Part shown: positions 3,491 through 52,365 of the stretch, piece by piece
Numbering within the stretch: position 1 is the stretch's first letter
Layout of the letters: every line of letters starts with the position of its first letter
DNA from: Ruditapes philippinarum
Taxonomy: Eukaryota
NCBI RefSeq assembly: GCF_026571515.1
Contig: NW_026860036.1
Span: forward strand, 248,001 to 300,933
DNA: 52,933 bases
Reading direction: 5' to 3'
Notes under the pieces: generated by a model
The model's database searches: none
What the model was told of the DNA's origin: nothing
What the model saw: only the letters and a program-made list of their open reading frames with translations
Made by a program: the position numbers and the translations under genes

Positions 3491-3983
3491 CCGGACACAC
3501 CATGGAAGAATGGAAGACGCTCATTTTTTAGGAATATATCTGATTTTTTTCATCTGAAGTACACTTGATATCGGTTATTCTGGCTAGCCTGAAGAACCAG
3601 ATATCGATGTGATTAGGAATTTGAAAATACATCATGAAATAAATGAATGGTCTTTTGCACAGGTTTTACTGTATCATTTCTGGCTAGCCTGTTCAGCCAG
3701 AACCGGATTCCGGCTAGCCGGAGTAGCCGGAACAACCGGATTAAACGAAAATATGTTCCGGCTGCTCCGGCTGTTCCGGCTGTCTGGCTAACTTCACGCA
3801 CATCGTTTCTTAGGCATATTGTTCCTTTAAAAATAAGTACATTTTAGCGCTAATTAAGATATTTTATGGTGTAATCAGCAGAAAAATAAAGAAAACCACT
3901 ACAAGCTAAAAATACAATTGGTAGGAATGAAAATTTAGCCTATAGATTTCGTTAAAATCATTAAAAACTTTAAAACTTTTTAC

Positions 3984-18030: not shown

Positions 18031-18289
18031 ACATTGAAAAGAAGGTGAACAATATTGATGCGGACAATGTGGTGTTTGTCTCTAAATGCTATGATGACGG
18101 TACGATGATTGAAACCGTTTTTACTATAGTACTAAATTACATTTTATTAAACATGACGTTATTTTGTAACAGTTATTTTTTGGCATGGTTAAATAAAGAC
18201 ACAGTACATATATATACATGTACTTGTATCTTTATGTCTCTTTTAGATATATAAAGTGTTGGTGATTGTGATAATAAGCATTCCTTATT

Positions 18290-21853: not shown

Positions 21854-24800
21854 ATGAGAAAGTCGCGTGACCGTTTAATTTTAGTTATCACCATATTTGC
21901 TATATCCAGATCAGGTAAGAATTGAAATCTTAAATATTTTTATTTCATCTCATATTTCCCCTTTCTTTTTAAATATCATTTTGATATAAAAGAAAAAATC
22001 TGAAATTAAAATGAAACTTTTTTATTGTATGACCCTTCATAACCATCTTTAGTTTTGTGTGATCCAAATTTCACGTTTTTGGCTGCAAAGCTGCAAGACA
22101 TTTATTTTGGAAAACTTGTTCCGGTTAGGTGGTTTCCTGCTTACATATGTTAGTGCATGATTGAACGGGAAACCAGCTGCAATCGTGCCAATCGCAACTT
22201 TTCGGCCCTTTCCGTCACTCTTCGGATTAATGATAATAGCCGATGTAGTTCCGATTGCAATCGTGACAATTCGGGCGAGTAATATTACCGAAATCTAAGC
22301 TATTTTAGTTACTTCGGTAATCCCAGTTTGTTTATATAAATAGGATTTCTATTTTTACTTGATTCCGTTTCAATTCTTTTTCAAGACGCAAAAGTTAGTT
22401 TCTTTTATAATTGTTTTTGTCTTTATTAGTTTTATACAATAGAGAATGGTTACTGTAGTTAGTAGTATTCCGTCTCCAATTTAAAGAGCGGTCCTGCTTA
22501 TCAAAAGATCGTGACCGAATCACGCAGAATATTAGTGCATGATCAAGTTATATTTAGATCTAGCGTCTTGGTAAAGTAATCTAAAAATAGCCCATGCATA
22601 TCATTAACCTTGCCACGTGCTGATCTCCATAGATATTTTAAGTGTAACATAGTTGATACATGCTTATTAATTGGTACCACGTAACGAAGTCTTTTAGTGC
22701 ATTTACTTGTCTCTAAAGCTGCTATAAATGAAATTAGCAACTGCCAAAACGAAAAAACCCTACATATCCCTTTAAAAGTGAAACTTTTTTTTCGAGAAAA
22801 AAAACTAAATAAACCCTTTATAATATACAAATACGTAATTAAAAAAATGTGATAATAAATTGAAACAAAAAAAAAAAAAACAAATTTAAAGGGAAGGGAT
22901 GATGGCACAACTGAGCAAGCCTTTCCTTTTTAAAGGAAACTTTATTTCCCCTCGAACTGTTTTGTTTCAATTGCTGATCTTTTTAATTTTTAGGAAACAA
23001 TTACATTATGTATAAACACAAAGCAATTAAAGTTTATTAGTGTAAGAAATTAAATGATTGATATAGTTCTGTAAGGTATTAAATGCAAAAAATCCGTTGT
23101 AGTATGTTATTAGATTTGATAGCAATCCGTCAAACAGTTGTTTTTATAAAATGCTTTTTAAAAATTTATTACAGCTACTTCCGCGTCGTCGACTGCTTCA
23201 ACGTTCTCATCGACTCAAAAATTAGACACAACAACAAAAAATGATGAGACGTATACCTCTTCCCAATCTACTGTTTCTTTTTCAACTGATATTCCAACAA
23301 CAACTAGTGGTATAGACACCACAGTTGAACCAACAAGTATGATATCATCTACTGAATCTGGTACAACCACGGGCGATTTATCAACGACAACTGCAGCATC
23401 TGATACATCAGTCGATGATCTAAGCACAACTACCACAGGTGATATTGACTTTACAACATCAGATGATCTTGAGCCGTCCACAACTGATTTAGAGACAACT
23501 TCAAGTGAACAAATAACAACGGAAACTTCTACACAATTTACAGATCTAACCACATCAGTCGCTGCCGAAACAACAACGACTTCTTTAATTTCATCTAGAG
23601 CATCTACAGGTATGTCAACAACAGTCGACCAGGATACTACCATAGGTGAATCGACTACAATTACAGACTCCCCCACAACATCAACACAACCAGATCTAAC
23701 AACGTCGTCGCTAGGGAAAGAAACAACTAGTATAGCTTCAGGTCAATTATGCCAAACAAGAGACGAGTTTGAGCAAGGTAATTAAACATGAAGATACCTA
23801 CCATTTAAGAAATTGTTGTTGTTGTTGTTGTTGTTGTAGATGATATTTTTGAACAGTAACTTATAAATCATAATAGCTTTTTTTTAGATCATAGATCCAA
23901 ATCTACATGCATATATTTGTTTTAATGTTTATAACTGACTATTTTTTGAAACCCTACTCTCAACTTAAGCTATAAATTATACGTAATAAGACTTGATTGT
24001 TTCTTCTGCCATTGAATAATTGTTTCTGTGTGTATTTTATTATCAGATGACGTCAGAAATTATGTCATTATTGCATTAAGCGTTGCTCTTGGTACTATGA
24101 GCATCTGTGTGATGATATGGTGTGTTATATCAAGATTGTTTGTGAATGTAAGTACTTACAAGCTATTTTAGAAATAATATCGGTCTCAGCGGTGTTTATC
24201 AGCTGACACCCGTGTGGAGTTTTGATGCATAGGAATCGACCACGAAGGCCGTTGGCTTCTGAGTGGTTAATATTGTCGCATTAAATCGACAAACCTATAT
24301 TAAATAGCCGATTAACACCGCTTAGTCCGATTTTTTTTTGATTTTATAATATGATAAAATAAGGGAGACCATAAATGTTTTGTTTTAAGCCGATATTTTT
24401 CCGTTGCCGATTTTGTTATTTAGGACTCCTCTTTCGCTAAGGTATAAAAAAATAAACAAAAGAAATACAAATAAGAAAAATATGTCACACTTTTTTTTTT
24501 TCATCAATGATTTTGTTTTGTTTTTCAACAATTCAAACTTCCGTGTCAAACTTGATTGTCTTGTGATTCGGTTTTACAACATTTTAAACTTAAGTGTCAA
24601 ACATCCATCACCCATTGCAGTTTAAGGTAACGCCATTCTGGCAATTTTAAGAATGAGTTGACTACTAAAAATGACGTCAATACGCTGATTAATATTGCCT
24701 AAGTATTTTCTCTAATAAATTATATCAACTGATATGGGTAAAAATGTAGCATTATTGCATGTGAAATGTCAATTTAGTATCATATTGAAAGAAAACAATT

Positions 24801-26352
24801 GTGAGCGGAAAAAATCAATTATTTGGTTATTATTTTTGCCTTCAAAGGATTTGTTTATCCATCTTAAGGGATGGAGGAAAAAAGAACAGCCGATTAATCT
24901 TGTAGTCCCTAACCAGTGTTTATTGGCAGCTAACCATGTGAATAGCGACGCAATCACGAAGCTTGTTAGAATTGTTTTTAACATTTATAATTAAACTTTT
25001 GAAAGTCTAACTAAAATGAAAAAAGATGTAAATTGGGAGTTATTTTGTGGAATAAGATATCGTGCATTTAACACGATAACTAATTAAAAATTTCAAAAGT
25101 ATGTAAGAAATTGGAGTTTAACTACACATTTTCTTGTATTGCTATATTTAAGGTGAAGAAAACTATGATATCTGCAGGCACACAAACAGATTTCTTTATT
25201 TCAAAGGAAATTTATGTTCGTCCTTTGCCTCCAATAGATACACACATGAAGAAGTCAAATCCCTTTATAAATATAGACAGGAATACATGTGAAGACAAAA
25301 AATATCCGATGGATGTTCGCGTTGATATAGATCCCGATAACCCCCCTTTCGATAATAAATTGGATATTTTTTCCGAATGTGAATGTAGAAAAGTTAAAAA
25401 AGACGAAAAAATTAAGGAATGCAGAGAATATGATGGGTTGCTTTCACAATTAGTAGCAGAACCGACCGAGAGGTCATGTATGTCGAACGAGGATATAAAA
25501 TCCACTGACACAGATCTTTTATCAGAAGACATGAACATACTGGATTCTGAAGAATTCTTTAATCTCATTTTCGTTAGTGAGTATCCAATAATGGAAAATC
25601 CAGACTCATTGGCTTCAATTACTGGACTTCCCCGATCAGTGTCTAATTCTGATTCAATTTCTTCGTTTGATAAAATAAAAGAAAGAAGAGATGTAGTACA
25701 CGACATTTCCGGAATAGACAATGAAAAGGATGAAGGATCTAAATCTAAGACAAATGTGATTGGAGCAAGTATGAAAAATAAAAAGCCATCGTTTCAAACT
25801 AACCATTGTTTAAATGATGAAGAACCGTTTGAAGAGACAATAAATTTAGATACTGACGAAACAAAGCAAACAATGCGTCACGTGACATTTGCAGAACCTA
25901 AAGAACAAATTTTGAATCACAGCTTAAACTGTCAAGAAGTCGATCAAGAAGATTGTGTAGTCACCTTGGTAAGTCCTAAATACAGTAGATTAGAAAACTC
26001 AGAGACAAACACTGTCGAAATAACTGATTCATCAAGCCCAGGAAAATTGAGTATCAGTAGGAAATGGAAAAAGGTTCACAAGAACAGAGAAATAAATACT
26101 GACGTCATAAAAACTTTACCATTGTCACAAATTCAAAAGAAATATCTGGTTACATATGGCATTATATCAAATGAATGTAGTACCAATTCTGACATTAAAA
26201 TGACGAAGTCGTTAAGAAAAATAATAGCAAGAAAAACACTAAAAATAAAAGCAAACTCAAAAAAGAAATGGTCTCTGCCAAAACCTGAACTCAAGTTTCA
26301 AAGTGAACCGTACAGTAGTTTGTATTCTCGACTGTCACATTTTGAAACTTGA
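21854..26352 (+). CDS. Gene B: type-I membrane mucin-like protein, signal peptide + ~200-aa Thr/Ser/Asp mucin domain + TM + ~400-aa cytoplasmic tail (about 654 aa)
   Basis: Exons 21854-21914 (MRKSRDRLILVITIFAISRS), 23175-23777 (Thr-rich), 24047-24147 (TM YVIIALSVALGTMSICVMIWCVI) and 25153-26352. GT-AG, phases 1,1,0, total 1965 nt in frame. Confidence 0.82.
24178..24331. repeat. inverted-repeat (fold-back) segment, probably part of a non-autonomous DNA transposon in gene B intron 3
   Basis: atcggtctcagcggtgtttatcagct ... agccgattaacaccgcttagtccgat are imperfect inverted repeats. Confidence 0.5.
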
Positions 26353-27349
26353 TATGTATAGATAGTCAAGGTAAAAACTTTGGTGAAACTTTCGTAAACA
26401 TAATGCTGTTATGTATGTAAACTGAAAGTTATTTATATATGGCATTAATGTTATTAATTTGAAAATGAGAAGAAGATTTAAGGCCGTTTAATTTTTGTTG
26501 TTATTGCAAGTGTGCTAGGATTTAATAACGTATACTAACAAAATATTATTCCGTAAACAAATTTACATTATTAAGTACATGTAGATTTTAATACTATTAA
26601 TCAAGTATTTGGTGTAAACCGCAAAGCCGTTTAATGAAGCGTATACACATTTTAATAATAAAGCTTATATGAATATTATTAATTAATTCCTATTTTACCT
26701 ATCATGGTTTGGAAATATTCAGTCTTTATCTATTGGGACATATTGTTTTACTTGTATTTCATTTGTTATTTGTTCAGATACTAAATAAAAAGATTACATT
26801 AGTATATAATTTTACGTATTGAGTTGCCTTATAATTACATATATACCATATGAATAATTATAGTCCTTAAATATGCACGAAAACGTCACATTCAGACTGA
26901 CTGCGTTCATAATAATAAAAACAATTGTAACGGATATAAGTTTGAAAATAAATGTGGGAACAATATAGATTATAGCATGTTGAAAAGAATTGTTATTGGT
27001 GAATGTTATAAAAGGCGCGTTTTAAATGTCTGTTGCTTTTCTTCTGATAAGTATTTTATTTAATACGTTTCCTATTAGTTTGTTTTTCCTTTTTACACAT
27101 GCAAATAAGGAAAATCTTAACTGGTGAACAGAATTGGTTTAAGGGAATCATAAATGAAACAAATTTATGAAAGACAACCTGGGCGTCACCATCCTACTTC
27201 TTGAATTATATGGCCCGAAGATAAATGAGTTTAATAATTTTTCATTTTCTATTTGACATTGATAAATCCTCCTCCATTATCCTCCATATATCCTTCAAAT
27301 TGTCCGTGTGATAATATTTTCAATTAATTTCGTTGAGAATTTATAATTC

Positions 27350-27565
27350 TTTGTTTGTTTTGATTTTACGTCGTACCAACCTATAAAGGACTTATTCCAG
27401 CTTTACTGGTAGAAGAAGATGTCAGGTTCTCCGCTGCGTATTGTTTCAGGCACGAACGAACATGCACCTGTATAGAGACATGCTTGCTGGATGGCTTCCG
27501 TACATGAAAAAAAAAACAAGTCCCTGGCAGGATTCGAACCCACAGCGGTGAGAGGCAAGTGGTGA
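27350..27565 (-). mobile_element. tRNA-derived SINE, 5'-truncated
   Basis: B-box GGTTCGAATCC on the minus strand (about 27531-27541), a body shared with the copy at 34377, and an (AAAC)n tail. Confidence 0.7.
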
Positions 27566-27912
27566 GAATTTGCTAAAAGTTTTGGTGAAGACAAAAACCG
27601 TTGGGTACACATGCTAAAAAGTAAAAAAAAAATATGAATATAAATTTTGAAGTTATGTTTCATTCACGGATTTATGTCAGGTGAAAGGCAGTATTTGATT
27701 TCCATAACAGTGAGTAAATGACTAGAAAAACTAAATACCACATGAACATCATCTATATTCAGTAAATAAGCCAAAGAATTTGTCATCTTTACAGCTAGTT
27801 AATTTGTGACTTGACAGCACCAGATTCGTTCAAGCACACAACATCTTCACACGAAACAACTAGCTAGCAGTAAACATTATTTTCAAAAAATAAAGACCAT
27901 AAACAAATAAAA

Positions 27913-28268
27913 AGTTTTACTAGTTTATTTTATATTATAATGTTATCTTAGAGCATCAAAAGTCTCCGGCAGTGAGTTATACTGAATAACAAATATTTGT
28001 TTGCATTAAATGTGTTTCATTAATGATTCCCTTAAACCAACTAGTTTTACTAGTTTATTTTATATTATAATGTTATCTTAGAGCATCAAAAGTCTCCGGC
28101 AGTGAGTTATACTGAATAACAAATATTTGTTTGCATTAAATGTGTTTCATTAATGATTCCCTTAAACCAACTAGTTTTACTAGTTTATTTTACATTATAA
28201 TGTTATCTTAGAGCATCAAAAGTCTCCGGCAGTGAGTTATACTGAATAACAAATATTTGTTTGCATTG
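27913..28268. repeat. 130-bp tandem repeat, about 2.7 near-identical copies
   Basis: agttttactagtttatt recurs at 27913, 28043 and 28173. Confidence 0.95.
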
Positions 28269-30669
28269 ACAACTGTCCGTTTTTTAGAAAGGTCAACGCG
28301 ATGTATTAAAGCCATATTTCATTGCAGGTCGAGGTACTAATGACGTTAATATACTTGCTGCTCGATATTATGCGATAATGACCTTCGGACTGAGGCCCTC
28401 ATGCCATTATGGAGATACTCAGGCCTTTTATTCATGATAGTGAATAGCGACCAAGAATTTACTCTAAATAACTCATTTAAGTCTTATCAAATATATGCCT
28501 TCTCACTCCCAGTTTTTTTGGAGTTAGAAATGATGCATGGGTATGTGATAAAGTATCTATGTTCTTTTTTGTGAATATGTTTTTCTTGGTTTGTTTCCTT
28601 TCAGTTTAGTTGATATGACGTCAACCTAAAATGTCAACAAATAACACTTATTTATTTTGTTACACAATACGTCAAGATAATCTTTATTGCAATATCTTTC
28701 AATGTATAGTTAGGGAACCGACCGAAATGCAATTTCTAACTCAGTTTTAATGTCATATGACTCAAATCTTATTTAAGTTATCAATATCCTATTGAAAAAC
28801 TTGCATTATTCCGCTTAACCATTACCACGCTAAACGTCTTAAAAAGTAATTGTCCATCACAATCTGGACAAAACCATTCATCATTTCTTAGGAAATTTTT
28901 GAAATAAGAGCTGAAAGAGCAGCTAACACTGCGGGACCATGACATTTATAGTTTTTCTTTTGATTCATGAACGACAATATTCAGGATGCAGAAAAACAGC
29001 GTTTCTTTTACGTGTTTTATAGTGTTAATTTCTTTGTCTTTCGTCAGAATATACATGTTAAATTTGACCAGGTAAAGTAACCAAAGAGACGATGACGAAA
29101 ACAACGCTATGATTGATTCATCTGTCAGGGTCAAGGAAATAAGTTTAAAATTCAAAATCGGCATATATTGTTTTGCTTTCTTTATTCATGTATGTAATAA
29201 TTGGAATTCCATCACACTTAAAATATAAACAACATCAATAAAAAAAATGTTTGGACAATTAAACATCTAAAATAATTGTAGGTCTCATTACTTAAGTTTG
29301 GTAAAAATGGGTGTTTTAACACTTTCTTAAAAAGGCTTTAACAAGGCAAAGCAAAGCAATTCACAATACAAGAGTCCGGTTGAAAGATTGGGAAAGATGA
29401 CTCAAATCGCATTGCTTCTGGGCACTGAGCAACGACAATGCACAGATTGACCTTAGGGACGCCAGCCCTGTTGGCACCCCAAGCACGTGCTATGAACGAA
29501 TTGAAAATGCCGCATAACCACCGAAAAGACGCACATTGATTGTTTGATAAGTTCCTAATACGTATTAAATACTACTAAATACGCCGTGAGGATGCCATTC
29601 GCCGTAGAATCATTGTACACACACTAAGAACGCTCTAAAAATCCTGTTAAGTCGCATATAAATGCCGTAAGAACAAAATAGGAATGCCATATGAACGCCC
29701 TGTAAACGCAGTATAACCTTCATAATTGTACTTGAAACGCATTAAATAGGATGCCAAAATTTGCAATTTTGCCTGAAAAGAAATCGCGGGTTCTAGTACG
29801 GCTACGGCATTTTCCAAAACATAAAATGCCGGTTTAGGTCGCTTAAGATAGTCATACTGGGTACTTATTAGAGAAGGAGAAATAACGATTTACCGCTAGA
29901 GACATTTCAACTTCGTGAATTCGCTTATATAGATACAATTTCAACTGTATGACGATTTCAACTGATTTGATCATTAGATATTGGCTAAATAATTCAAACT
30001 TTACATATTCAGCTTCATCAAATTATGATTTTAATTTGACTAACATACGTTTGTGAATCTGAAATCGTGAACTTATGAAGTTGAATCCGTGAAGACACAA
30101 TGGCATCACCCGTTATTAGCAGGAAATCGCAAATCATTCACTTTGTATAGTGGTAGCATTGCATGGATCTTTTGCAAACTACCACTGGGAATACCTGTTT
30201 GCAGCCACATTGTATCCCCTGTCTTTTTCTTTTGTCTTTTCCAAACCATATATCAATAAAGCCCTATCCTGTCCATCATGTTTTGCCCTTTATTTACATA
30301 ATAACTTCCTGATAATTACAAGAAACAATTGATACAGACGATATATACATAGGACGTAAATCCATAAGCTGCCCTTTTTGTTGAACTTATTTAACGATGT
30401 GTGCATGCAAAAAGAAAAACAATCAACAGCTATCAAAAACATAAATATTGAAATATTGATAAGGAACAATTTTTTTTTGATAACTCTTAAGCATTTTTCA
30501 TAAGATTCGTCTATATTCTTTCACTAACATAACAGCTTAATTTCAATACAAAATACAAAACAACATTGTTAAACAAGTGAAAATACATTTATGTCGTGCA
30601 TCTCAAAATACTTTTGTATTTTATAATATTAACGACACGAGGGCATGTACCAGAAATCATTTTAATAAA

Positions 30670-31066
30670 TAAATAGAGGATATCCAAGTTTCTATAAATA
30701 GATAAAGGATCTATTTTCATCGAGTGGTATGAAAATAAATATTTTACGAGTGGCAGTAACCAGGAGTGAAATATGATAATTTTCATACCTCAAGATGAAA
30801 ATATATCCTGTATTAATAGAAATTTGAAGTTTCTGTTTATTTTATACCTTTTTCTCGTTTTTAACCTCATGAATAGGCAATATTCACTTTTAATCTTGTT
30901 TATTGGCCGAATTTAGAGGAGAGTCGTCCGGCAACACACCAGTGAAAATATGGAAAATATATTTCACTGCAGTGAAAAATAAATTTTTACAGTGAAAATA
31001 CGGAAAATAACAAAACGCATTTTATTTCATAAAAAATTCTCAATATTTCATTTATAAGTATATAAT
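30670..31066. mobile_element. non-autonomous DNA element with internal inverted repeats; absent from the duplicate segment
   Basis: The paralogous region at about 47940-47960 joins the two flanks directly. A related fragment lies at about 41480-41580. Confidence 0.65.
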
Positions 31067-31158
31067 AAAACAATATACTTATGAATAAAATGACCCTATT
31101 TGTATATTCTGTTTATATGTAAAGTAATTCGAATAATACTGTTATGATATCATGTTTG

Positions 31159-34100
31159 TTAGCAATGTGAATCTTTTCGTTTCTTTACTCGTTTCCCCTT
31201 GGATTGACGTCTTATCATGTGTAGTAGCTTTTCCTCATTCTTTTCCTGAGTAAAGAAAGCACTTTCCATCACGCTACGAACTTTATAAACATGTTTAATC
31301 TCCTTGGCAACAGTTGGGCTAAATGGCATTACCTGAATTGGGCGAACTTCCCTACTATACGTATCCGGACTTTCAGTATCAGTATTATCGGTTTGATAAC
31401 TGTGTACAACCGTTTCCGGTTGAGACATTTCCGGTTCCGGTTTATATACTTCCTTTTCCGGTGTAAAAAAAAATCTTTTATTTGCCGGAATGTCTTTGAT
31501 TGAATCTACACTGGCTATATCTAGAGTATCAGGAGATATATTACGAATGTCACGTTCATCGTCACTTTTTGGAATCTTTTTCTTTTTCCTTGTCTTCCTT
31601 TTGTGTTTATGTTTGCTGATAATTACATTTTCCATTTGGATTGGAGACGCTTCATCTTCATCTACAAATGCTGGAATATTTCCATTAGCCACAGGCTTGA
31701 TAGGTGTTTTATCAGGGCCAATTGTGAATTGTTTAGCTTCCCCTTGTTTTTTATCGTCTCGATGGATAATATCCGTTTGACTGCTTGTAGTTTGAACATT
31801 TTTCTTTGTTTTGATATTTGCTTGACTTTTCTGATTTTTTGTCTTAATCATGTCTGTTTGACATTGTCCATTAGACTGTAATATTGCTTCTGTTGATACA
31901 CCTTTATCTTTGTGTTTCAATGGTGGTACTTCAGACATCATAAAATCAGTTAATCTGTCTGATTCCGTTAAGGTTACTTGGCAGCCAATCTCTGCCCTCG
32001 GAATACGTATTTCATTCATTTCAGAGTTGATGTTAGGTTCAGTCAGATCTTTTGTTTCCACAGTATGGTGTAGTTGTACCTGGCAAGCAAAATCTTTTAA
32101 AGTTGGACTAGTGGGCGGTTCTGGTACGGATACCATGACTGGCTGTTGCAGGGATGGTTTATTCTCCGCGGGAACCTGTAATGGGGTTAAAGCATACTTT
32201 TATTTCTCAAAGATATGTTCATTTCTGCTCATGGTTGTTGCTTTGTCTATTTCAATGACAAGGAATGACAACTCCATGAGTGTTTTTTTTCGTGTAATAC
32301 GAAATTTACTTCCCTTTTAGGTTAACCATTATTGTGAAAAACAATGCGATTGTGAATTTATTGTGTGTACATGAATAACAAAAACATTAAAGATTAAAAG
32401 ATCTACATTAAATAAATCAATACATGTGACTAGGAAGTAAAACAGTGGTTAATTTACGCTCATGCAGACGACATCGATTAGATAAAATTATGATCGTGGA
32501 ATGAGGAAGAATTATTTAAATTATTTATTGACCTCGATTAAATTTGTTCGTTAAAATTTGTAAGATGTCAGCAGTGGACTTTTTAAAAAGATAAATACAT
32601 ATGTACATTCAACATGCAATTTCAAATAACAACCCTTTATCCTTTTTTCATTGCTTTACCAAATAAATTACCTTTAATAGAAAGTAATTTGTAAATATGT
32701 AATGCTTTCTATTCAGAAACATTAAACGTACAATGGTTATTGATCGTATTGTCACCTTAGTGCATTAACGGATTAAGTCCTTTTAAATTCAATAGGAGTT
32801 AACCAGTTATTGTCCCAAGATAATTAAACATGTTAAATCTAAGAAGGATAATGTTTTGCTATTGAAAATGCTTAACTTTTTAATACATGTAAATAGAGCA
32901 GGTGCAGTGATCCAGTGTTAACAGTGATTGATTGACTACAATTCGTAGGTTGTGAGTTCAACCATCAGCTACTCAAACTAATTACAATATAGGTTACCAT
33001 GACGACTATATGTAAACGTGTATTTCACACAATACCCTCTGGAACCCTTTAATAATAATTCATATGTAGTATACTTTTTATCAAATGATATTACTGACAG
33101 GTAAAATATTTTAAGAAAAAGTGAGATCCAAGAGCTTATTTCTTATCATCTACATGTAGATGGTATATAAAATAAAACACTTTTTATTTTCTATTTACTT
33201 AGTTACGAATGGATTGTCTTATGACATACGATTTGGTACGATTTACCTTTTCTAAGTCATTGCTGCTTTTAATACGACATGTTCTGTATAGGCAACATGA
33301 TAATATCATAACAACAATCAACAGAATGGCCGACAACACTCCCAGAGCAATTACTACAGCCAAGTAGTCATCTGGAAAAAATACAACAACAAGAGATTTC
33401 ATTATGTTCATTGCCGGATAGTCATCTGTAACAAAAACACTTGTAGGGATGTTAATTGTGGAGTAGTGATCTGTGACAAAATAAAAAGATGACACGATGT
33501 TCATTGCCTAAAAGTCGTTTTGAATAAAAACAGATGCCAGATTGCCGGATAATCATCTATAACAAAAACACATGTACGGATGTTAATACCCGAGTAGTCA
33601 TCTGGCAACAGATCTCACAACAGTTATCTGGAACAAAAACAGATTTCGTAATGTTAATTTGAAAAAAAAACATGGCTGCAATTATGAAACTTTCTTTATT
33701 ACTGAAAAAAAAACTCTAAGTATATATTTAATGAAATGGTAAACTGTATTTGTCTCATTTACCGTTTGTGACAAAGTTATACGCAAGTGTTTAATATATA
33801 TTGCAAAAGAACTGGCAAAAATATGAATGATCTAAGCTATAATATCATTGCAAACATTATGATTCTGCTGTGTCTGCGGAGAAGCATGCGAGGAATTCCG
33901 CCCAAAGTAAGGAGGACAGTCGTCACATCAGCGTAGAGGTGACGGCAGAAATGAAATATTCAATAATAACAGAACATGTGGTTTGATAAATTTTATAAAA
34001 ATCAGTAAATCGATACCCTTTTCTTCAGAATTGTCCTCTGCTGTTGTTACATTGTGTGAATCTGTTGACGTTATAATAGTAGTTGTCATATTCTCAGTGG

Positions 34101-37100
34101 TTGTAGATGTGGTTACCGTGGTAATGTTCATTGTTGTACTGGTTGTCGTCTGCATGCAGTATTGTTGTGATGTAGGCGGACAGCTGACAGTTATGTTAGC
34201 ATTCTGATTGGCTATTAAGCAACAGCAACAAAAACAACAACTAAAAATGATTATCAAAAGGTTACGTAATTAATGTTCTAGGAATAGAACACATATTTAT
34301 TGATGTTATCTTATCTGATATAATCATAAAATTATCCTCTATTTTTTAACAAAGAATGGCGAATGCGCAAACAATTCTTTTGTCTGGGTTTCACGTCGCA
34401 TCAACACAGTATAGGTCATACGGCGACTTTCAGGCTTTACTGGCGGAAGAAGACCTCAAGTGTCGGCAGAAACAGGCATTTGAGTAGAACAACGGCGTAA
34501 CGAAAGCTATCTGGATAACCTTCTGACATGTAGAATCCGACGACACTTGCACGGCTCGAACCTACAACTACCTAAAACCCCTGTCACACTAGGGCGGCGT
34601 TCTCACGGCGTCCAATGAATTTTCAGAACGCCGAGGTGAGCGCAGTAAGATCGCAAACATCGCCGCAGCATCGCCGTAGCATCGTAGTGGTATCGCATAG
34701 AACGCCGACCGACGGCGCGCATTTTGAGCATGTTCAAAACAAACGCCGTCACTCGGCGTTCTAAAGTGAGCTCAGTGGGATCGCAGCAAGGACGCCGTAG
34801 CAACTCAGTAACATCTCCTACAACGCAACAGGAGCGCCGTGAAAGCGCAAAAGGAACGCCGAATGAACGCGGTGGTTATCCACGGCGCTTGTACGGAGTT
34901 TGTGCGGCGTCCTTACCGCGCTTATACTGCGTGTGCACGGCGCTTTTACAGAGCTTTACGATTTCAGCGCAGTGTGAATGCCGTAAGGGCGCCGTATAAG
35001 CGCCGTAAAAGCGCAGTGAAAGCGCAAAGAACGTCGTAGAAGCGCGATCTGAACGAAGACAATCGTCAATTAAAACGCCGTGGAAGCTCCGTAGCATCGC
35101 CATGATTGCCGTGGGGACGCCGTGAAGACTCCATGAAGTCTTCATGTCATCAAAAATATTAGATTTTTCATTGCGATCTCGCGGCGCTTTGTTAAATTTT
35201 ACAACGCCGTGCAAACGCAGTGAAAGCGCAGTCTGGTGTGACAGGGCCTTAACCAACGACCTTTCATACGGACGCCCCTTTTATACCCAAAATAAATAGT
35301 TAAAACGCTACTTGAAATTGTATGTAACAAACAAATAGAAATAGAGAAATACAGAATCACTAAAGAAAGCCCAACACGACAAAATTGAAAATGTTGCAGG
35401 CTCGGTTTGATTGAGCCTGTTCATGGACGGTACTGGAAAGTGCAAGTTATCGTCCACGCCCCCTAGCACCGGCTTAAGCAGAATTCAACATTTAACATGA
35501 CAATGGTGAAATTTTGAATTTAGAAACATCCGCAGATGTGTTCATAAAAGTCTATGTAAAAAAAATCTGGAAACAAAGTGATCCCTCGGAAGCATTAATC
35601 ACAACAATATTACAAGAGAATTGCAGACTCGGTTTGATTGAGTCTGTACATGAGGGGTAATGAATACGTGCAACATCCCTCACGCCCCCGAGCACCGGCT
35701 TGAGCGGTACTCAATTCTCAACACTTAATAGTGCTGGCATCAATGATCCTGAAGGACCAGAAAAATATAACAACTCTGAAGTGAAGTACAGGGCAACTTT
35801 TTACAGCTGCCACACAGCACTTAACACCTGCTGTTGTGAAGTATAAAAATCTTGAAATAAAGTGATCCCTCTGAATCATTAAACACAACAAAATTACAAG
35901 AGAATTGCAGACTCAGTTTGATTGAGTCTGTACATGAGGGATAATGAATACGTGAAACACCCCTCACGCCCCCTAGCACCGGCTTGAGCGGTACTCAATT
36001 CTCAATACTTAACAGTGCTGGCATCAATGATCCCAAAGGACCAGAAAAATATAACAACCAGAAAAATATAACAACAATAAAATACTTAAACAGATATAGC
36101 TTTTACCCCTTAACTTGGTTGTTTACAAAAAATAATATTAAATTAAAAAACCCTTTGCATTTAAGATTAAAAATATAATAAACGGAAACCTTTAAACCCC
36201 ATCCAGACCTTGCCGTCGCTATCATTACGGGTATTTTCTAGGTTAAGCAGTATATAAGTAACCTGTGCTTGGAAGTTTTCTATATCTTGTTTGTTATCAC
36301 TACATGTCCACTCATAAAGGATAGTACTATTTTCACCACTTCCAATCCGAACAGTTTGATTGCACGCCCCATTTCTGAAAGAAGTTATTTGTCGTATAAG
36401 CTCTGATTTTGATGGTCAAATTCGAGAGAACGAACGCATACAAACATGTTATTGTTATGATATGCAGTTTTATTAACTTACGAATCGGTATTTGTTTTGA
36501 GTTTGAAGACACATAAAAATTGTAAAGATCACTTTTTCACTTTTTAGCCTGCTCGTTCCTGAACGAATTCAGGGACACCTGATGTCTTTCATCATTGTCG
36601 CCGAATGACTTTAACAATTTCGGTGTGACTCAAAGTTCAACAAAACAAACAAACAAACAAAATTAAAAAAAAAGAATTATGATTTTTATTGATTAAGCAG
36701 GACCACAGACCATAGTTTCAGTATATTTAGTATAAACGGAAGCATGCTGAAGCCACCCACCATATGAAATCTAGCTTATTTAAAGTGGTAAATGTCACAA
36801 GGTGAGAAAAATGTGCAGCCTGACCGAGACTCGAACCCGGGACCTCGGAATACCGTACCGCGGCTCTGCCGACTGAGCTATCCGGCCGCTTACACATCCT
36901 CTCCCCCTATATAGTGAACAGTTCTGAACCGTGACATACTCCCCTGCTATATTGAAATTTGTCCTCGAAATTCACAGAGTTACAGAGCAATGTGAATTAA
37001 ACTCTGAGCTATATTCAGTCACGGCCCCACGTTGGGCGCCAAATGTCACAAGGTGAGAAAAATGTGCAGCCTGACCGGGACTCGAACCCGGGACCCTCGG

Positions 37101-40100
37101 AATACCGTTCCGCGGCTCTACCGACTGAGCTATCCGGCCGATTACACATCTTCTCCCCTAAATTGTGAACAGTTCTGAACCGTGACATAAAGAACATGTA
37201 TATCATTTCCTTCAGAATTATAGTTTCGATATTACCCGTTTCCCGTTAATATGCTGTACATTTTATAGATATCAATATAAGCATCACAGTTGTCTATCTC
37301 CACGGAACAGTTGCAGCTTGGGTCAGACGGACTGATGGACGAAACCTCAAAATCTTTGTTCCAAATGTAGACTGTAGTGTTCTCTCTTGTTATTGTAGAT
37401 GTCGTGGCGGAACACAACTCTAACATTTTATCGTCTGCAAGTTTTATGCAAAAGGAAGACAAAATAAGAAATTTACATTGATCTATGAATACAATAAATA
37501 TCATTATATAATCACAGGAACATATTTCAAAAGCATCAATTTCCAAAATTTTTTCTTTCCGCACTAGATTTCAATGAAATCATATATCCATGACAGAAGA
37601 TCTCTCCCGAAAAACGACATAGTACCGAGTGAGAAAGCAAAACGGTCGGGCTCTCAGACGGCCACGAACAGCCCGTACACCGGGGATACTCAGTGCGAAT
37701 CGCAAGTTCTTCATGTTAGGGATGCTGGGTGGATGGCACACTTTGCCATTTCTTCGGAGAAAAAAACAGTTCCATGCACACTCAGGGGTTAGACCCTAAC
37801 TCCACCTAACAAGGCCCTTATCAACTCTAAGTAACTGTTAACATTGTAACACGAATGTAGGTAGCATCAGTGTCAATGTTAAAAATGTATTTCAATTCAA
37901 TTTCCATCTAAATAGTGCTTTACAATTAAGTTTCATTAAAATACTGAATTAAGATTTGGTTGTAAATGTTGTTTTTAGTTCGTGTGAAAAAAACAACAAC
38001 TAAGTTTATGATCGACAGATTACAAACTTGTATGTTACCGAGAGTTGACCAAGGTGGATTAAGTAGGGGTCAGGGTCTGACCCAATATTGTGTGTTGTCC
38101 AAAAATACATTAACAACGCAAGTGCTGTGAAAGAAGTATCTTCCAATGTTAATTTAAGTTTGATCAATTGTTCTTAATTTGTTCCGTCACTAGAATGTAG
38201 TGATTGAAGTAAATATAATTCGTATGGAAAACAGAACACGTATGACTATATTCACAAGCACATGCCAAATATGCGTCTTGATTTATCAAAAACAGTGTTG
38301 TTGATGAGATGTTTTACTCTAAAGCTATTACAGCCAATCAGAAATAAGAGGGCCAGACATCTATAGTACATTTTAAAGGTGCATAAATCAAATTAAACTA
38401 TTTATCCTTAGTTTCCTATCATTCACAGATTCTATCCATGCGATCAGTGCAGTCTGGACATGGTCTCTACTCTACCATATCCAATCAGTACTTATTACAT
38501 ATATGATGTTTCCCCTTAAAACAATAAAAGGTTTTGTCCAATTTTAATTGAAAGAAATTTTGTATGCCAAGGGTTTAGGAAACTTGTTTTCCTAAAACGA
38601 GTAGGAATTGATAGATCCCTACTCTGACTTTCCATTTGAATAGCAATAGATTTAACCACAAACATGAACATGTGCTCTTTTGTTAACAAATATGTTGTGG
38701 TGAAATTATTATTGCATCCACTAATCTGATAAGGGATTAATGCATGTATTACGGAGATTAAAAATCTTTGGTTGTAAGTACTGTCAATTTATGTTTAAAA
38801 TACTTGTCACGAGATAATTTAAACGTATGAAAAATATCGTTATATAATCTTACCCTCTATGCAGTAGTAATCAATGAACATGTAACGACTTAAAGTAGTA
38901 AGATTTCCTGTACAACTCGCGTCAGTATTTTGATTCTGTACTCCCAAGTAACAATTCTGTCGTCCGTTACAGCCTTCATGATAAGTTAAAGTTTCGAAAT
39001 AAAATGGGAACAGACAGTCATTTGCTTGGTCATATGTACAGCAAACAGAAAAGTTGTGCATATCGTCGTAGTATCTAGGACAACCTGTAGATTGTAATTT
39101 GGAACCCACTGTTACATGTTTGATGGCAACGACATGACCATTACCACAGGAAGCATTGACGAAGACTTTATCAGGATCTGACGACGTTCCGGAACATGCC
39201 GATGGTGACTGTATGATTTGAAGATTCGATGGCTGGCAGGTCACTGTAAATAAACGTAGTTATATCAAAACATGATAAAAAAGAAACAGATTCTGTTGTC
39301 AATAATATGCGTGCACGCACACTGTAAACTGTTAGTCCCTTTAATACAATATGTACTGTGCATGTAATTATACTTTGATTTAATTTGTCATCTTATTGTA
39401 CAGTTCTTCTCAATCTTGCTACTATTATTTCATGCCTATAGATGCTTATGTTTCCTGTAATTTGTAAACCGACTGAAAATAAAGTTTCTTGTATCTTGTA
39501 TCTTGTACCCATGCATTATTTTATCGACTTATAGTTTTAAAGTGACTTCTGTTTCAAATGGTAACATTGCTAAAACAGCTTAGATTCTTTCTGATAATGC
39601 ATTAAAGGCATTGTACAATTTGTTAAGTCTTTTTACAAGAATACATGTCGATATAATAACGAAGCTAAAACTGTTTGATTCCCTAGCTGTATCAATTTTG
39701 CTTCATTCACTAGATGTATGAGGAATATATTCTCCCAAAGAGGTTGATAAGATTAAAATAAATTTTGCAAAACCATATTAGTTGTGAAATCACAGACTCA
39801 AAATAATGATGTTTTAGGTGAATTCGGGAGATTCCCCTTATTTGCGGGGTTGGAGGTCCATATGGATCGCAAAATTGAGCATCAGTAAAAAGGATATGTG
39901 AATTTCCGCTCATCTAGATGTGAAGTTTAACACCAGATGTGAATGTTTAATAAGGTCAATCGTATGGTAGGTTTTCAACTTTTAAGCAGTTTTATAAACT
40001 TCAAACTTTTTTAAACGAAAATCGAAATGTGATTCTACCCTCCTGACTCTCCTCTATATTACCCATTTTTGCATTGGATTATTATGCAGTCTTCATCGAG

Positions 40101-42428
40101 ATATTCTTTTCGTTGAGTGTTTTATACTGTAACAGTACGGGTACGTTTCAGTCATTATCGAAATGTGCCAGGAACGTTATGGTTTTAACCGTAATGTTTC
40201 TCGTAATGGTTAATCATTACGCCTTGAACATTAATTAATCATATCCTGATGATCAACGATAAAACATCAAATTTGAGTATAAACGTAGTATATAAAATGA
40301 AGAAAAACAGAACCCCTAAAGAAAGCCCAACACAACAAAATTGTTAAATGTTGCACGCTCGGTTTGATTGAGCATGTTCATGGAAGGTAATGGAAAAGTG
40401 CTAGATACCGTCCACGTCCCCCAAGCTCCGGCTTAAGCAGAATTCAACATTTTAACACAAAATGGTGAAATTTGAATTTAGAAACATACGCTGATGTGTC
40501 CATACGGTGGAACCTTCAATGTGACACAGAAGTGTCATGTCATGAGAAGCGGCGAATGGTCCCCCAGTAAAATAATGCGTGTGCCCTAAACGAGAAAACA
40601 ATGGGCGGAGCTAAATAAAATGGAATTTTGAAAGGGGATCTGAGGTTATGAAGCCTGCACATCTTTTGACAAGACGTCAAAAGACAAATTTAAAAAGCAC
40701 TACCTATTGGGCTAACCACGGCCGGACGCTACCTGTTGAGCTAATGCATATCGCCGACTTCGTTACAAATAATTGGAAAAAACGTTGCTACCTCATAAAA
40801 GGTATTTCTACTCGAATATTTGCGAATAATATTTTACTTGCTTCCTTTTAGTATTGACATGACTCTAGTACTCTATCTCAATAGCTTAGCGCAGATTCGA
40901 CGTTATTTTTGCAAAATTTTGAAACTTGGCACGGCCTCGTGAACGCCGTAAACAGTTACCCTCGAGCTAGATATTCCCATCTTTACCGGCAGCCGGTGTA
41001 ACATCCTTAATTGTAATCCGCGCAAGACAAGTCGCGTGTTTTAAATGACGTCATTCCCGCGCGCCTTTTATGAATGATTTTCGTTCTTAGAATGACGTCC
41101 TTTTGACGTTATGAATGAAGTTGTAAATTCAAACGCTACTATCAATGGAAATCTTAGTTCTTTCCGAAATGATTTTTCTGCGTAGTATTCAAGATAAAGA
41201 ATCAAACACCGGCTGCCGTAATAGACCGGAATATCTAGCTCTCGCGTAACTGTTTACATACGGTAGTATCGCGGCCCTCAGCCGAGTTTCAGCTGAACAT
41301 TTACCCGAGAGTTAGAAATTTCGGCAGCCGGTGTTTGATACCAAAAGATAAAAAAAAAACTTGAATTTTCTGTTTATTATATACATTTTTCTCTTTTTAT
41401 AATTTGCAATTTGAGAGACTTTCCTATAAATTGTGTGTACTGGCAGAATTTAGAAGAAAGTAGTCAGGCAAGACATCTGTGAAAATACGGAAAGTATGTT
41501 TCACTGAAGTGAAAAATAAATTTTACAGTGAAAGTACGGAAAATAAAATACACATTTAATTTCATCAATATTTTCTCAATATAATGATTTTACATCATTA
41601 TTATATTTATGTACGCCGAACACGGCGATGTGCATCGTCAATAAAAAAAATGAATTATAAATTTTTCAACTGATATTAATAAAACCTGTGGCATTAGTGT
41701 ATTTGAGATGTTATTATAGCATCATATGGAAAGAAAACATAATAAGAATGGAAAATATCAATAGAATGCGTTGTTATTGCTTCCTAAAAGGCTTTGTTAA
41801 CTATCTTATCGCAAGGACAAATAAAACAGTTGCATATACATGTAGCAGTCCCTAACCAGTATTTATTTGCACTTGAAAATCACGAGGGTTTTTAGAATTT
41901 ATTATAATAATACTTGTGTCAGGACGGTTGTAAGGCTAGAAAGAATGTTTTAAACCAGTCTACCTCAAATGTTTAGCCGTTTCTTATAATGCCAAAAATA
42001 TCTGTGGACAACAATTAAAGTTTTTGGGCTTTTTATATTGTCTATTTAAATCAGCTTTACAATAAAACACTGGCAAATTTTTGAAAATGATCATCGACTG
42101 GTTTCTCAACTTACGATCGGGTTGTTCGAATTACGGAATATTTCTTTAACACCAATCTATGATGTTTCATGGTAAACTTCAAGAACATCACCAATATTAG
42201 TCAAAGTTTCGTATCATTATGAGCTTTATAATCCCTCGTGTAATTTTTTATTTTGGGGGTCTTTTAGATCACATTAAGCCACTACTCTCTCGTATTATTA
42301 AACTCTTATTGATATCAATATTTTATAATTTAATAATTTCATATCAACAATTAAACAACAAACTTACCTTGTGCTATAAAAGCGCCAATTGAAACACATA
42401 TTATCGCTAGAAAGTTTAATTTCGTCAT
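31159..42428 (-). CDS. Gene C: type-I membrane protein, signal peptide + SUEL-like lectin domain + CUB-like domain + Thr stalk + TM + tail with multiple LC8-type motifs (about 723 aa); paralogue of gene A
   Basis: Exons 42428-42368 ([20 protein letters not shown]), 39243-38854 (…CNGRQNC…[10 protein letters not shown]), 37434-37236, 36374-36190 (…GACNQTVRI…EWTCS…KVWMGFK), 34211-34017, 33371-33247 ([27 protein letters not shown]) and 32175-31159. GT-AG, phases 1,1,2,1,1,0 (identical to gene A), total 2172 nt in frame. Confidence 0.87.
33360..33660 (-). repeat. about 7 degenerate ~45-bp tandem copies of the splice-acceptor/TM-exon start
   Basis: Recurring minus-strand motif TTTTGTTNCAG|ATGACTAY...AATGAACAT. 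Confidence 0.75.
34377..35279 (-). mobile_element. tRNA-derived SINE interrupted by a MITE
   Basis: The body (caggctttactggcggaagaaga, ggctcgaacc) matches the SINE at 27350. The probable head remnant (ccaacgacctt...cggacgcccc) resumes after 35252. Confidence 0.6.
34576..35249. mobile_element. PIF/Harbinger-type MITE (674 bp)
   Basis: 14-bp TIRs AACCCCTGTCACAC / GTGTGACAGGGCCT (12/14 match) flanked by a TAA target duplication. GC-rich interior with many ACGCCG motifs. Confidence 0.8.
35389..36003. repeat. three copies (35389-35493, 35616-35719, 35900-36003) of a ~104-nt multi-hairpin element; candidate structured RNA
   Basis: Closing stem plus internal hairpins with compensatory substitutions between copies; a fourth copy lies at 40342-40457. 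Confidence 0.7.
36793..37187 (-). mobile_element. complete TRIM (miniature LTR retrotransposon) with a tRNA-like sequence in each LTR (Helenus-type)
   Basis: Two 144-bp LTRs (36793-36936, 37044-37187) bounded by TGTCAC...GTGACA; 4-bp TSD TAAA; PBS TGGCGCCCAACGTGGGGC (tRNA-Lys, 37041-37024); PPT GCAGGGGAGTA; A-box and B-box in each LTR. Confidence 0.93.
40342..40457. repeat. fourth copy of the ~104-nt structured element, in gene C intron 1
   Basis: Homologous to 35389-35493 including flanks (about 40300-40505 vs 35345-35545). Confidence 0.8.
40950..41340. mobile_element. fold-back element with ~45-bp inverted repeats (probable non-autonomous DNA transposon)
   Basis: acagttac...gagctagatattcc...cggcagccggtgt and its inverse acaccggctgccg...ggaatatctagctc...gtaactgt, with a third partial copy at about 41300-41340. 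Confidence 0.5.
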
Positions 42429-43307: not shown

Positions 43308-44299
43308 GCCGGTAGAATAGAAAAAGAAAAAATGACAAAATTATCATCTAGAGCTACTATGCACTCGTCAAAGGGCAAAGCTGATAACAAGGCAGTAAAA
43401 TGAAACTCAGGTTTTTAAGGATGATTCTCTTGCTCAAAATCCGAACACTAACACCGAACCGCTGAGTGCAACAATTGCGTCCGAAATATTACCTGGGCAT
43501 AGCACTGTAATAGTAAAATAGACATAAATGTGAGACCAAAAGAAAAAGGGCACAGACGGCCCCTATTCGGAATGAAGCACCTTTCAGTGTAGGTGGATCC
43601 AGACCAGAGATTACAACTAAATATAACGGAAGCAAGAAAAGAAGTAGCTCACATAAAACTCATTTAAGATATAAGAACTCTCCAACCACCACACAAGAAA
43701 GATCGTATCCAAAACCTTATCACGATTCATATAGCAGCGAATGCAAATGATTACGATAATGACATGAAACCGTTAGGTCATGAAAACCGATGCCTTTCTC
43801 ATGAGTAAAACAACTAAGTTTTCTTAAAGGTGTGGGCATAAAAAAAGAGACGTAATAAGATTATTCCGACACATTTCAGTTTAAGACACCGACATCATGC
43901 ACAACTCAAGAGTGAATCATTTAGTTTATTGGAAAGAGACATAAAATATCTGCTTTGTATAATTGACAATTATGATGAAAACAGGTACTCGACGATGATA
44001 AATAATGGCCATGGTTTAACAAGATCTAAAGCGATGAATAATTTATCTAGAAAAAGACGAAAAAGAAAGGGTCAGTAAAAACAAATGCTTCTACAGACAA
44101 AAACAATGATATAGTGAGAAATGATGCGTACAATGATAATTCTGATGTTGAAAACACAGTTGATAGTTTGCGAATTGTTAACCCTACTACACGAAGAAGG
44201 CCTCAAATGGCACAAACGGAAAGCTTGAAGACAACATTGGAAGCAGTTCTTAATTCATCAAAAGTAAAAAGAAACAAATAATACTCAAAAAGGTAAACA
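43308..44299 (+). pseudogene. pseudogenised copy of the 3' two-thirds of gene A's cytoplasmic-tail exon
   Basis: Aligns to about 16975-18027 but carries frameshifting indels and stops; no ORF of 60 aa or more in the track; no upstream exons. Confidence 0.9.
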
Positions 44300-46307
44300 A
44301 TGCTATTATGACAGTACGATGATGGAAACCGTTTTTACTATAGTACTAAATTACATTTTATTAAACATGACGTTATTTTGTAACAGTTATTAATTGGCAT
44401 GATTAAATAAAGCCACATTGCATATATATATATACATGTACATGTATCCTTATGTCACTTTTAGATATAAAAAGTGATAATAAGCATTCCTTATATTTTG
44501 TTTGTTTGTTTCATTCGTAATGTCTTTTTCTACAGGAGTCATTGTATCATTACCTATTGTTAAGGTTTTTTAGCAAGAATAAAAATTAGTTATAAAGAGT
44601 ATTATGCTCGTTATACGATCGAACGTTATAAAACATTATTGTAAGCAGTGGGAAGTACTAAGATTCGTTAATAGTCGTAAAAGTAGGACGTCCTATTATA
44701 ATCTCAATCGCTATGCCTCGCCTATTTTGACTCAGGAGATTAAAAGAGTGTAGTGACTTTTGTGTGTTTTTTTCCGCTGTATCAAAATTCTTCTTGATTT
44801 AAAAATAAACACAACTTTTCCCGATTACCGAAAAAAAATAATAATAGAAAAGTGGAACATTAAGTCCCAGTAAAAACGTTTGAGGGAGAGGCATTTGATC
44901 ACGGGTCAAAATATATTATAAAACGACTGTGTGATGATCAAATAAAATCATAAACAAATAACACTTCTATGTCCCTATGAAAGCCGTGCTCCATAACAAT
45001 GCAAATTAACTTTATATCGTTTTTATTTTTTAATGAATTTTCATTAACATTCGATGCAAATGTCTTTGTTTTTACAATTAGAATAGGCCTTCAACTAATA
45101 AAGGTAAAATTAAGTAAAAAATAAAAACAGGCGTAAAATAAAATGCACACCAATAGACATTTAGTACGCGTTATCTGAACTAGATAAAATAGCACCTCAA
45201 TTACCAATGTATTGAACATAAATATTAGATATATTGAAGAATTCTTTCTATTAAAATTAATGTTGGATCAGAACAACAATCTCTTAAAACAAAACATTGC
45301 CATTGACGAGTGTTCTATTCATACAACCAAATCATGATTATCAACGATCATTTATTTAGACAAAAACAAGAGATATTGTTCAACATTTAGTAGGGAGTGT
45401 GAACTATTTCTTTTAGATTGGTATAGATAATTCCAAACTGTCACATTGTTTAACGTTTATCCCGACTTTTCTGATTACTCATACCAACCTGCGATTATGA
45501 ATGCAAGGAGTGTAAGATGTGTTTTTTCAATGATGATACCGTATCCTTTACAGTGCCTCTCTCATTCAGAAATGGTGTGTCCATCATTAGCTATTCGCTA
45601 TTGTAAATAATGCGTAAAGCGTTGTTACAGTTCGGCACATCCATATAACACTTAGCAAAGAATATGAACAAATCATTCAAGAACAAATACGATATAGAAA
45701 TGAATGCTGGCATAGTTTAACTGTATATACGTATGTTAACAAATAAAACAATATTTGGACATTCTTTTGTGAACGCTTATATAACAAAGAACATTTCAAA
45801 TTTTGTTAACCTAATTGTATTGCCCTTTGTCACCTTCTCAAAATTTCTATTATCCAATATTAAATTGTTATTGTAAATTCATTATTTTAAAATACAGCCT
45901 AAAATAGTTTGTTTCAAATATTAACATGCAATTTTATGTCTATTTTTTGTAAAGATACACCAAAAACTTAACTGTAGATGGGCAAAAAATGTGTCATTTT
46001 TGCGATGTTTTATGAAACTTGAGCAGTATTTTTTCAAATCGATGGACATATTAAAGCATTAGAATTAGGGGATACAATTTTATTTGATAAATTGAAGCTT
46101 TATTTTAACAACATGTTTAGTTATAATTGTACATGTAAAACAATGTTTTTGATAAATAGATATTCGTTTATTTACTGATTTTAACATAAATGTCAGTTCG
46201 CCTTATTTGTAATAAAAATTACAAACACTAGTGTCTGTGGAATGGTGATTCATTTCTTTAGTTATAACAATTATAAATTTCACTTAAATAAATGTTAAGA
46301 TAAGATG

Positions 46308-46497
46308 ATATCAAATAAATGTATCACCAATTCTGATATTAAAATGGCGAAGTCGTTTAGAAAAATTATGGCAAGAAAAACACTAAAAATAAAAGCAAAC
46401 TCAAAAAAGAAATGGTTTCTGCCAAAACCTGAACTCAAGTTTCAAAGTGAACCGTACAGTAGTTTGTATTCTTGACTGTCACATTTTGAAACTTGAT
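46308..46497 (+). pseudogene. remnant of the last ~60 codons of gene B
   Basis: Aligns to 26165-26352 (…KPELKFQSEPYSSLYS…); the rest of the gene is deleted. Confidence 0.9.
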
Positions 46498-48086: not shown

Positions 48087-48123
<37 letters not shown>

Positions 48124-52322: not shown

Positions 52323-52365
52323 CTATTGGCACACACATATTTATTAATGTAATCTTATTTGATAT

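Follow-up and report, generated by a model that had tools for sequence, protein, structure and literature searches.

A probable twister-sister-type RNA domain in tandem retroelements likely copied by Naiads in the clam Ruditapes philippinarum

We report that a four-way RNA fold in a genomic stretch of the clam Ruditapes philippinarum is a real, conserved RNA structure and that it forms one domain of two non-coding, tandem-forming repeats, family A of ~641 nt and family B of 284 nt. There is little doubt in our minds that A and B are non-coding retroelements dependent on Naiad, a Penelope-like element. The explanation that best accounts for the observations jointly, and that we consider fairly likely on the sequence comparisons below, is that these Naiad-copied tandem retroelements carry a permuted, dimer-dependent twister-sister ribozyme that would cut at GCUY^AAGCC. 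In the parts of Craig 2021 available to us (PMC8557442), Naiads dominate bivalve genomes, are singled out as being without the hammerhead of other Penelope-like elements, contain no canonical hammerhead, and have non-autonomous partners described for Chlamys. For the ribozymes missing from Naiads, our analysis offers two concrete candidates, each with a named predicted cleavage site. If our reading is true, it adds a natural permuted, dimer-gated form to the twister-sister class, connects the human lantern ribozymes with a retroelement setting in animals that is conserved and functional, and extends retrozymes beyond hammerheads.

The four-way fold and its copies in the window

The window, i.e., the whole 52,933-nt stretch of DNA analyzed, had been described in a sequence-only reading as containing four copies of a multi-hairpin element with compensatory changes in three stems. 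The quoted stems are all present, with the closing stem at 35389-35396/35486-35493 in copy 1, 35616-35623/35712-35719 in copy 2, and 35900-35907/35996-36003 in copy 3. A covariance model, built partly from these same four copies, recovers all of them on the minus strand at 100-121 bits, including the fourth, while the rest of the window scores ≤17 bits. Copies 2 and 3 lie in family B units and copies 1 and 4 in family A units. The features are as follows.

35334..35546, minus strand: 5'-truncated family A copy, positions ~1-210 from the fixed 3' end, 96% to a natural A unit
35389..35493, minus strand: four-way domain copy 1, family A, intact core, predicted cut 35476/35475 (GCUU^AAGCC)
35458..35479, minus strand: invariant core of copy 1, with GCUYAA at 35474-35479, the palindrome GCCGGU at 35468-35473, GCUAG at 35463-35467, and a G-run
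35561..36058, minus strand: family B, 1.75 tandem units of 284 nt each, fixed 3' end at 35561
35616..35719, minus strand: four-way domain copy 2, family B, private change GCUCG at the A8-equivalent
35735..35890, minus strand: junction domain J, a long hairpin with motif 2 (35786-35820) and an outer helix round the U-rich reverse-transcription start
35900..36003, minus strand: four-way domain copy 3, family B, intact core, predicted cut 35986/35985
40292..40699, minus strand: older copy of family A that spans ~1-413 of the unit at 88% and has a degenerate four-way domain (copy 4) at 40346-40452
33928..39259, minus strand: host gene context, with exon-like frames 38840-39259, 37232-37570, and 33928-34269

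The proposed selection on a single-stranded four-way fold is supported. First, the long stems covary. In a 39-sequence alignment of five families, 6/8, 6/9, and 4/7 pairs of the three long stems show two-sided changes, counts that are inflated by kinship of the sequences although the changes recur across independent families, and 90% of long-stem cells are paired vs 33-43% when the partners are slid. Second, the minus-strand folds of copies 1 to 4 beat shuffled sequences (z of -2.9, -5.0, -5.1, and -3.2) and are more stable than the plus-strand folds (z of -2.8, -3.4, -2.6, and -0.4). The junction region runs in the sense of the Naiad ORF at a fixed place, identifying the minus strand as the RNA strand. 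Other parts of the earlier description have to be revised. The fourth arm of the junction is a short helix plus the twister-sister catalytic loop and not the long hairpin. The long third arm exists in family B but only there, its outer part being unpairable in A and E, and the G in copy 2 is private to that copy. The suggested alternative pairing of GTGC with GCAC, a pseudoknot, shows no two-sided change in the 39-sequence alignment.

The same reading had left non-coding RNA, ribozyme, and mobile-element RNA signal as options, of which the last two are the correct ones. The location of the copies in introns of one gene could speak for a host RNA, and because stems are possible in DNA too, a DNA cruciform or the signal of a rolling-circle DNA transposon could be considered. 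However, the exact core occurs 12,337 times, dispersed over the 1.4-Gb genome, and a second shared motif 6,638 times, with 0 matches for the controls, so that the copies are not specific to one gene; the intron link is incidental; the copies have the end pattern of retroelements; and G-U outnumbers A-C on the minus strand by 96 to 32. The junction that the repeats have in common with Naiad largely refutes this family of explanations, to which we give almost no credence.

Families A and B and their Naiad partner

Families A and B are 67% alike across 284 nt, and their longest ATG frames encode 39 and 94 aa, respectively. Copies have one fixed end, are variably truncated at the other, are 0.1 to 4 units long, and include inversions. 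Left ends lie ≤20 nt from the unit start in 121/166 A, 89/106 B, and 80/136 Naiad segments. Array neighbors differ at 31/547 (A) and 32/310 (B) diagnostic sites, whereas unrelated arrays differ at 45%. This sharing of subfamily alleles by the units of one array fits repeated copying of one RNA, although a circle is not proven thereby. Subfamily variants occupy 1/106 columns of the A four-way domain vs 41/353 in the A middle (p 0.0002); in B, the corresponding constraint is not significant (3/104 vs 10/147, p 0.25). Two runs, X21 and X22, give rough copy numbers of ~28,000 for B and ~15,000 for A; these runs are labeled RNA-Seq, yet their reads break at GATC and they behave as Hi-C DNA.

A partner element emerged from one B array that sits within a reverse-transcriptase fragment, itself represented by 13,522 candidates genome-wide. 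Full units of the partner are 4.25 kb long and tandem, with an N-terminal GIY-YIG domain, CxC, DKA, in-frame UGA codons, and a SECIS-like hairpin (SECIS_1, 31.9 bits, under the 35-bit cut-off, E 0.0004). Craig 2021, in the part available to us, lists among Naiad features the N-terminal GIY-YIG, CxC, DKA, UGA codons with SECIS, and a length of 3.4-4.4 kb (PMC8557442). Searches of the Naiad reverse-transcriptase fragments against Pfam and PDB gave no match. Loci L166-L174 constitute a young selenoprotein family of Naiads, 96-99% alike, in tandem arrays and with several in-frame UGA codons at Cys-type sites and a SECIS-like hairpin.

Three observations connect A and B to this element. First, at the boundary of every full Naiad unit stands the A/B junction region, in ORF sense and 81-87% identical to A. 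Second, domain J adopts similar folds in Naiad and in A, B, C, and E despite different sequences, with an outer helix, a U-rich loop, and a long hairpin. Third, Naiad, A, and B all terminate in the U-rich loop at (T)AAAAT, where similarity fades over 4-6 nt. A and B thus have the membership features of a non-autonomous Naiad, i.e., no ORF and a 3' end and pLTR region in common with the autonomous element, and they are likely copied by the Naiad protein. The four-way domain is absent from the autonomous Naiad of this genome, and six motifs had no exact match among 54 published Naiad consensus sequences. Domain J, seen at L169:5027-5200 (minus strand) and at 35735-35890 of the window, is a candidate protein-binding site around the reverse-transcription start, and Naiad and five non-coding families have its structure in common. 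Among 256 terminal junctions, five have the P4 loop of A/B as the insertion target, in opposite orientation (loci L039, L043, L179, L193, and L034); the sequence of this loop resembles the priming sequence.

The cloverleaf-like shape of the domain, the T-loop-like P4 loop, and the U-runs at the fixed 3' end raise the question of whether A and B are SINE-like Naiad partners with a tRNA-like head and an internal Pol III promoter. We find this very improbable: neither ARAGORN nor Rfam detects a tRNA at the copies, relaxed ARAGORN calls are inconsistent between families, and the B-box-like loop is without G53 and variable at C56. Moreover, a transcript from head to terminator cannot yield copies longer than one unit, which account for 33/62 B and 22/68 A copies in a long-biased sample. 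The only matches in Rfam scans of the window and the homologue loci are two tRNA-like ones elsewhere in the window, in two 150-nt copies (36790-36938 and 37041-37189) that are 94% alike, have tRNA-like heads (36 and 49 bits), and probably represent a tRNA-derived SINE.

The domain extends beyond this genome, with related families in other marine animals. Of 44 metagenome matches, 39 are true homologues, which make up at least three further families, several of them tandem and with the same second motif; the other five are chance bacterial sequence at ≤22 bits. A sixth family was found in a bin labeled as a lucinid-clam symbiont and is probably host DNA. Viral contigs gave 0 matches to three patterns. 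Within the clam genome, a pattern designed for new families returned A and B variants only, and the 30 motif-2 sites sampled all belonged to A or B.

The conserved core compared with the twister-sister catalytic loop

The invariant core, C-Y-GCUYAA-GCCGGU-GCUAG-GG, matches both strands of the catalytic loop L1 of twister-sister and lantern ribozymes. In the accessible part of Zheng 2017 (PMC5660989), L1 consists of G5 C6 A7 A8 G9 opposite G59 C60 U61 C62^A63 U64, with the pairs A8-U61 and G9-C60; the mutants A7U and C62U/A/G are active, while G5A and A63U are dead. We scored 119 clam copies, collected through an anchor that lies outside the core, in this numbering. G5, C6, A8, G9, G59, C60, U61, and A63 are kept in 113-117 of them per position. 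The 5-nt strand GCUAG (115-117/119 per position) departs by A7 to U, and the 6-nt strand GCUYAA (113-117/119 per position) by C or U at position 62 and U64 to A. Two of these departures, A7U and C62U, are active in the published mutants, and A64 occurs in the LINE-1 lantern, whose loops have U at 7 and A at 64 according to the available part of Zhang 2024 (PMC11620745). The sole L1 difference between A and B is the C or U at position 62, i.e., the -1 position. Without being prompted, RNAalifold paired C60 with G9 and U61 with A8. A descriptor of L1, composed after the sequence was seen, has one match per family in 6/6 families, 0 antisense, and 0-7 in 2000 shuffles; the core invariance of families C to F is by construction because they were fetched with the core pattern.

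The arms agree with this assignment in part. Their order is P2-P3-P4-P5 as in four-way twister-sister, the closing stem corresponds to an opened P5, and P3, P4, and P5 covary, with P3 lengthened by a C-G pair in 35/39 sequences. P2 consists of two clear pairs plus L1 extensions, shows no two-sided change, and is placed in a shifted register by the folding model. The P4 loop is 9 nt long (AAUMAAACC) and keeps A33, A34, and C37 but not the conserved SL4 residues G29, U30, G31, and G35; for this reason, we do not file the domain as a member of RF02681. The Rfam model RF02681 had no match in the genome (69 of 7059 candidates scored), a miss that is expected for a permuted form, and Rfam ribozyme families had none in the window and homologue loci at E values up to 5-10 beyond sub-threshold noise. 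Altogether, the four-way domain probably functions like a twister-sister ribozyme. Because the catalytic loop of twister-sister is present, the RNA of the repeats is likely cut by the domain, and we hold twister-sister-type cleavage to be likely. Copy 2 of the window, with its change at the A8-equivalent, is probably impaired. Variants at the -1 position were found in 399 copies; 24/30 continue as point variants and one array shares the change, numbers that may not exceed those from decay.

Other catalytic identities were considered. In agreement with the sequence-only reading, no tRNA, hammerhead, or HDV core was found by Rfam, ARAGORN, or core-feature comparison. Families A to E contain no CUGANGA..GAAA hammerhead core, and Rfam gave no hammerhead match; no family has a partner for the 7-bp, purine-initiated P1 that an HDV-like fold needs, together with P2 and a catalytic C, round the P3-like hairpin; and readings of the domain as a hairpin or pistol ribozyme failed. 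A self-cleaving ribozyme of the twister type, or of a new class, could be suspected from the ACCG-CUYAAGC-CGGU hairpin, which is like twister P4/L4 and like Naiad's own twister-like motif. However, P2 is missing, no general base sits in the right place, the general acid of family B would be U, and the twister descriptor has no consistent match and as many antisense matches, making this identity highly improbable, even more so than the tRNA-like head. A cross-domain twister using motif 2 was possible in D and E only, no better than in antisense controls.

As far as the accessible parts of the sources go, the domain has both likenesses to and differences from known systems. With four-way twister-sister (PMC5660989; RF02681), it shares both L1 strands, the P2-P3-P4-P5 order, and a 9-nt SL4 with A33, A34, and C37; it differs in being opened at P5 instead of P1, in having a 6-nt palindrome as P1, four other SL4 residues, A7 to U, and U64 to A, and in its animal retroelement setting. 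The family B loops equal the core loops of the LINE-1 lantern, in the same 5'-3' order (LINE-1/OR4K15; PMC11620745); unlike in lantern ribozymes, P2 leads to a four-way junction that covaries and includes an SL4-like arm, a palindrome makes up the other stem, and the domain is conserved across species.

Palindrome pairing, cleavage, and the proposed copying cycle

P1 of the domain is the 6-nt palindrome GCCGGU, which is self-complementary and cannot close within one unit. Among 11 folded natural dimers, five formed a cross-unit GCCGGU duplex with p 0.89-1.0, namely 3/3 A dimers, the C dimer, and 1/7 B dimers; in the other six B dimers, a competing AGUAC/GUGCU helix prevailed over the cross-unit palindrome. 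Homodimers lie 7-12 kcal/mol below two monomers. Cross-unit palindrome pairing is the arrangement of dimer-active hammerheads, which, in the part of PMC4209133 available to us, occur as palindromic forms in tandem repeats and Penelope-like elements. From these folding models, we lean slightly toward dimer dependence of cleavage.

The search for traces of cleavage gave the following. Two unstranded RNA runs of unknown selection contain no pile-ups of read starts or ends, and only 6 and 15 of their reads, respectively, run head-to-tail over the main B joint. No excess of copies ends at the predicted cut (0/145), implying that cleaved linear monomers are not the main template. These observations bear on the principal alternative, namely that the fold is non-catalytic, perhaps an ex-ribozyme, and serves to bind a protein, of the host or of Naiad, or to shield the RNA, with arrays arising by template jumps without cleavage. 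Such a role would be compatible with the SL4 divergence, the lack of an Rfam match, the missing cleavage and circle signals in reads and copy ends, and the competing helix in B dimers. It would also fit Poseidon, for which the accessible part of PMC11167929 describes insertion in vitro that did not need hammerhead cleavage, with internal initiation and priming without homology to the target. However, the invariant residues coincide exactly with those of the catalytic loop, the one change between families falls at the tolerant -1 position, and the autonomous Naiad contains no fold of this kind that could be imitated. We therefore consider a non-catalytic fold unlikely, and prefer the permuted twister-sister reading.

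Under the twister-sister reading, we suggest the following cycle. Units would be transcribed by read-through or from a 5' region of the Naiad type. Where units follow each other in one transcript, the P1 helix would form between the palindromes of n and n+1, giving two complete active sites. Cuts at both would free RNA of unit length, which RtcB could close into a circle in which the lone palindrome would be unable to re-form P1. After binding to domain J, the Naiad protein would nick AT-rich DNA and begin cDNA synthesis within the U-rich loop, with 4-6 nt paired. Copying round the circle, or repeated jumps on one RNA, could generate homogeneous arrays of up to four units.

The Naiad itself may bring a second ribozyme. 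A motif in its 3' UTR maps to a P5-type twister, with features for comparison taken from the available part of PMC11662667: it has N^AA, the G-A, P2, P3, P4, P5, two pairs of PK2, and PK1 CC/GG in 12/12.

L169:5490-5620 (minus strand), L215:1410-1545, L084, L076, and L097: twister-P5-like motif, predicted cut UU^AA

The motif occurs in two or more Naiad families of the clam genome and in metagenome contigs; two published Naiad sequences from clams have it too, with a compensatory change in P2. Its P1 is weak, and the Rfam twister-P5 model had no match in the genome. We regard it as a candidate for the ribozyme that Naiads were thought to be without. The most extended version of our model, with a P5-type twister in Naiad and, in its parasites, permuted domain-swapped-dimer twister-sister ribozymes, circular RNAs, and rolling-circle copying to tens of thousands of copies, is tentative, and we would not yet bet on it; if true, this ribozyme set has never been described for Penelope-like elements.

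Non-LTR retrozymes, in the parts of PMC7229834 and bioRxiv 10.64898/2026.07.22.740005 available to us, are a close counterpart: they too are short, non-coding, tandem, AT-rich units related to Penelope-like elements, with one ribozyme per unit (predicted here) and palindrome-based dimer activation. In contrast, A and B have no type I hammerhead, their partner is a Naiad, and circles are only proposed; what is available of Li 2026 (bioRxiv 10.64898/2026.07.22.740005) covers hammerhead retrozymes only. As in the accessible description of Naiads (PMC8557442), the partner has the listed features, a length of 4.25 kb, and tandem and inverted insertions; its end and junction domain recur in A and B, which, unlike Naiads, encode nothing. 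A literature survey, mostly at title level, found neither the core motif nor non-autonomous partners of Naiads described, and no twister or twister-sister ribozyme reported for Penelope-like elements; A/B sequences may be present in Repbase or Dfam, in subscription papers, or in large tables of ribozyme candidates.

The surroundings of the copies show further features. The frame at 38840-39259 has a weak SUEL lectin match (E 0.0036), and those at 37232-37570 and 33928-34269, between which copies 1 to 3 sit, are Thr-rich with a weak mucin match. Positions 34577-35250 hold a MITE-like GC-rich element between inverted CCCTGTCACAC ends, positions 1-3516 a near-perfect 170-bp GC-rich tandem array of at least 19 copies, and positions 18289-19770 a tandem array with a 145-bp unit. 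Long blocks of 16987-34216 are duplicated in 43323-52327 at 75-85% identity, pointing to tandem duplication of the lectin/mucin-like and neighboring genes.
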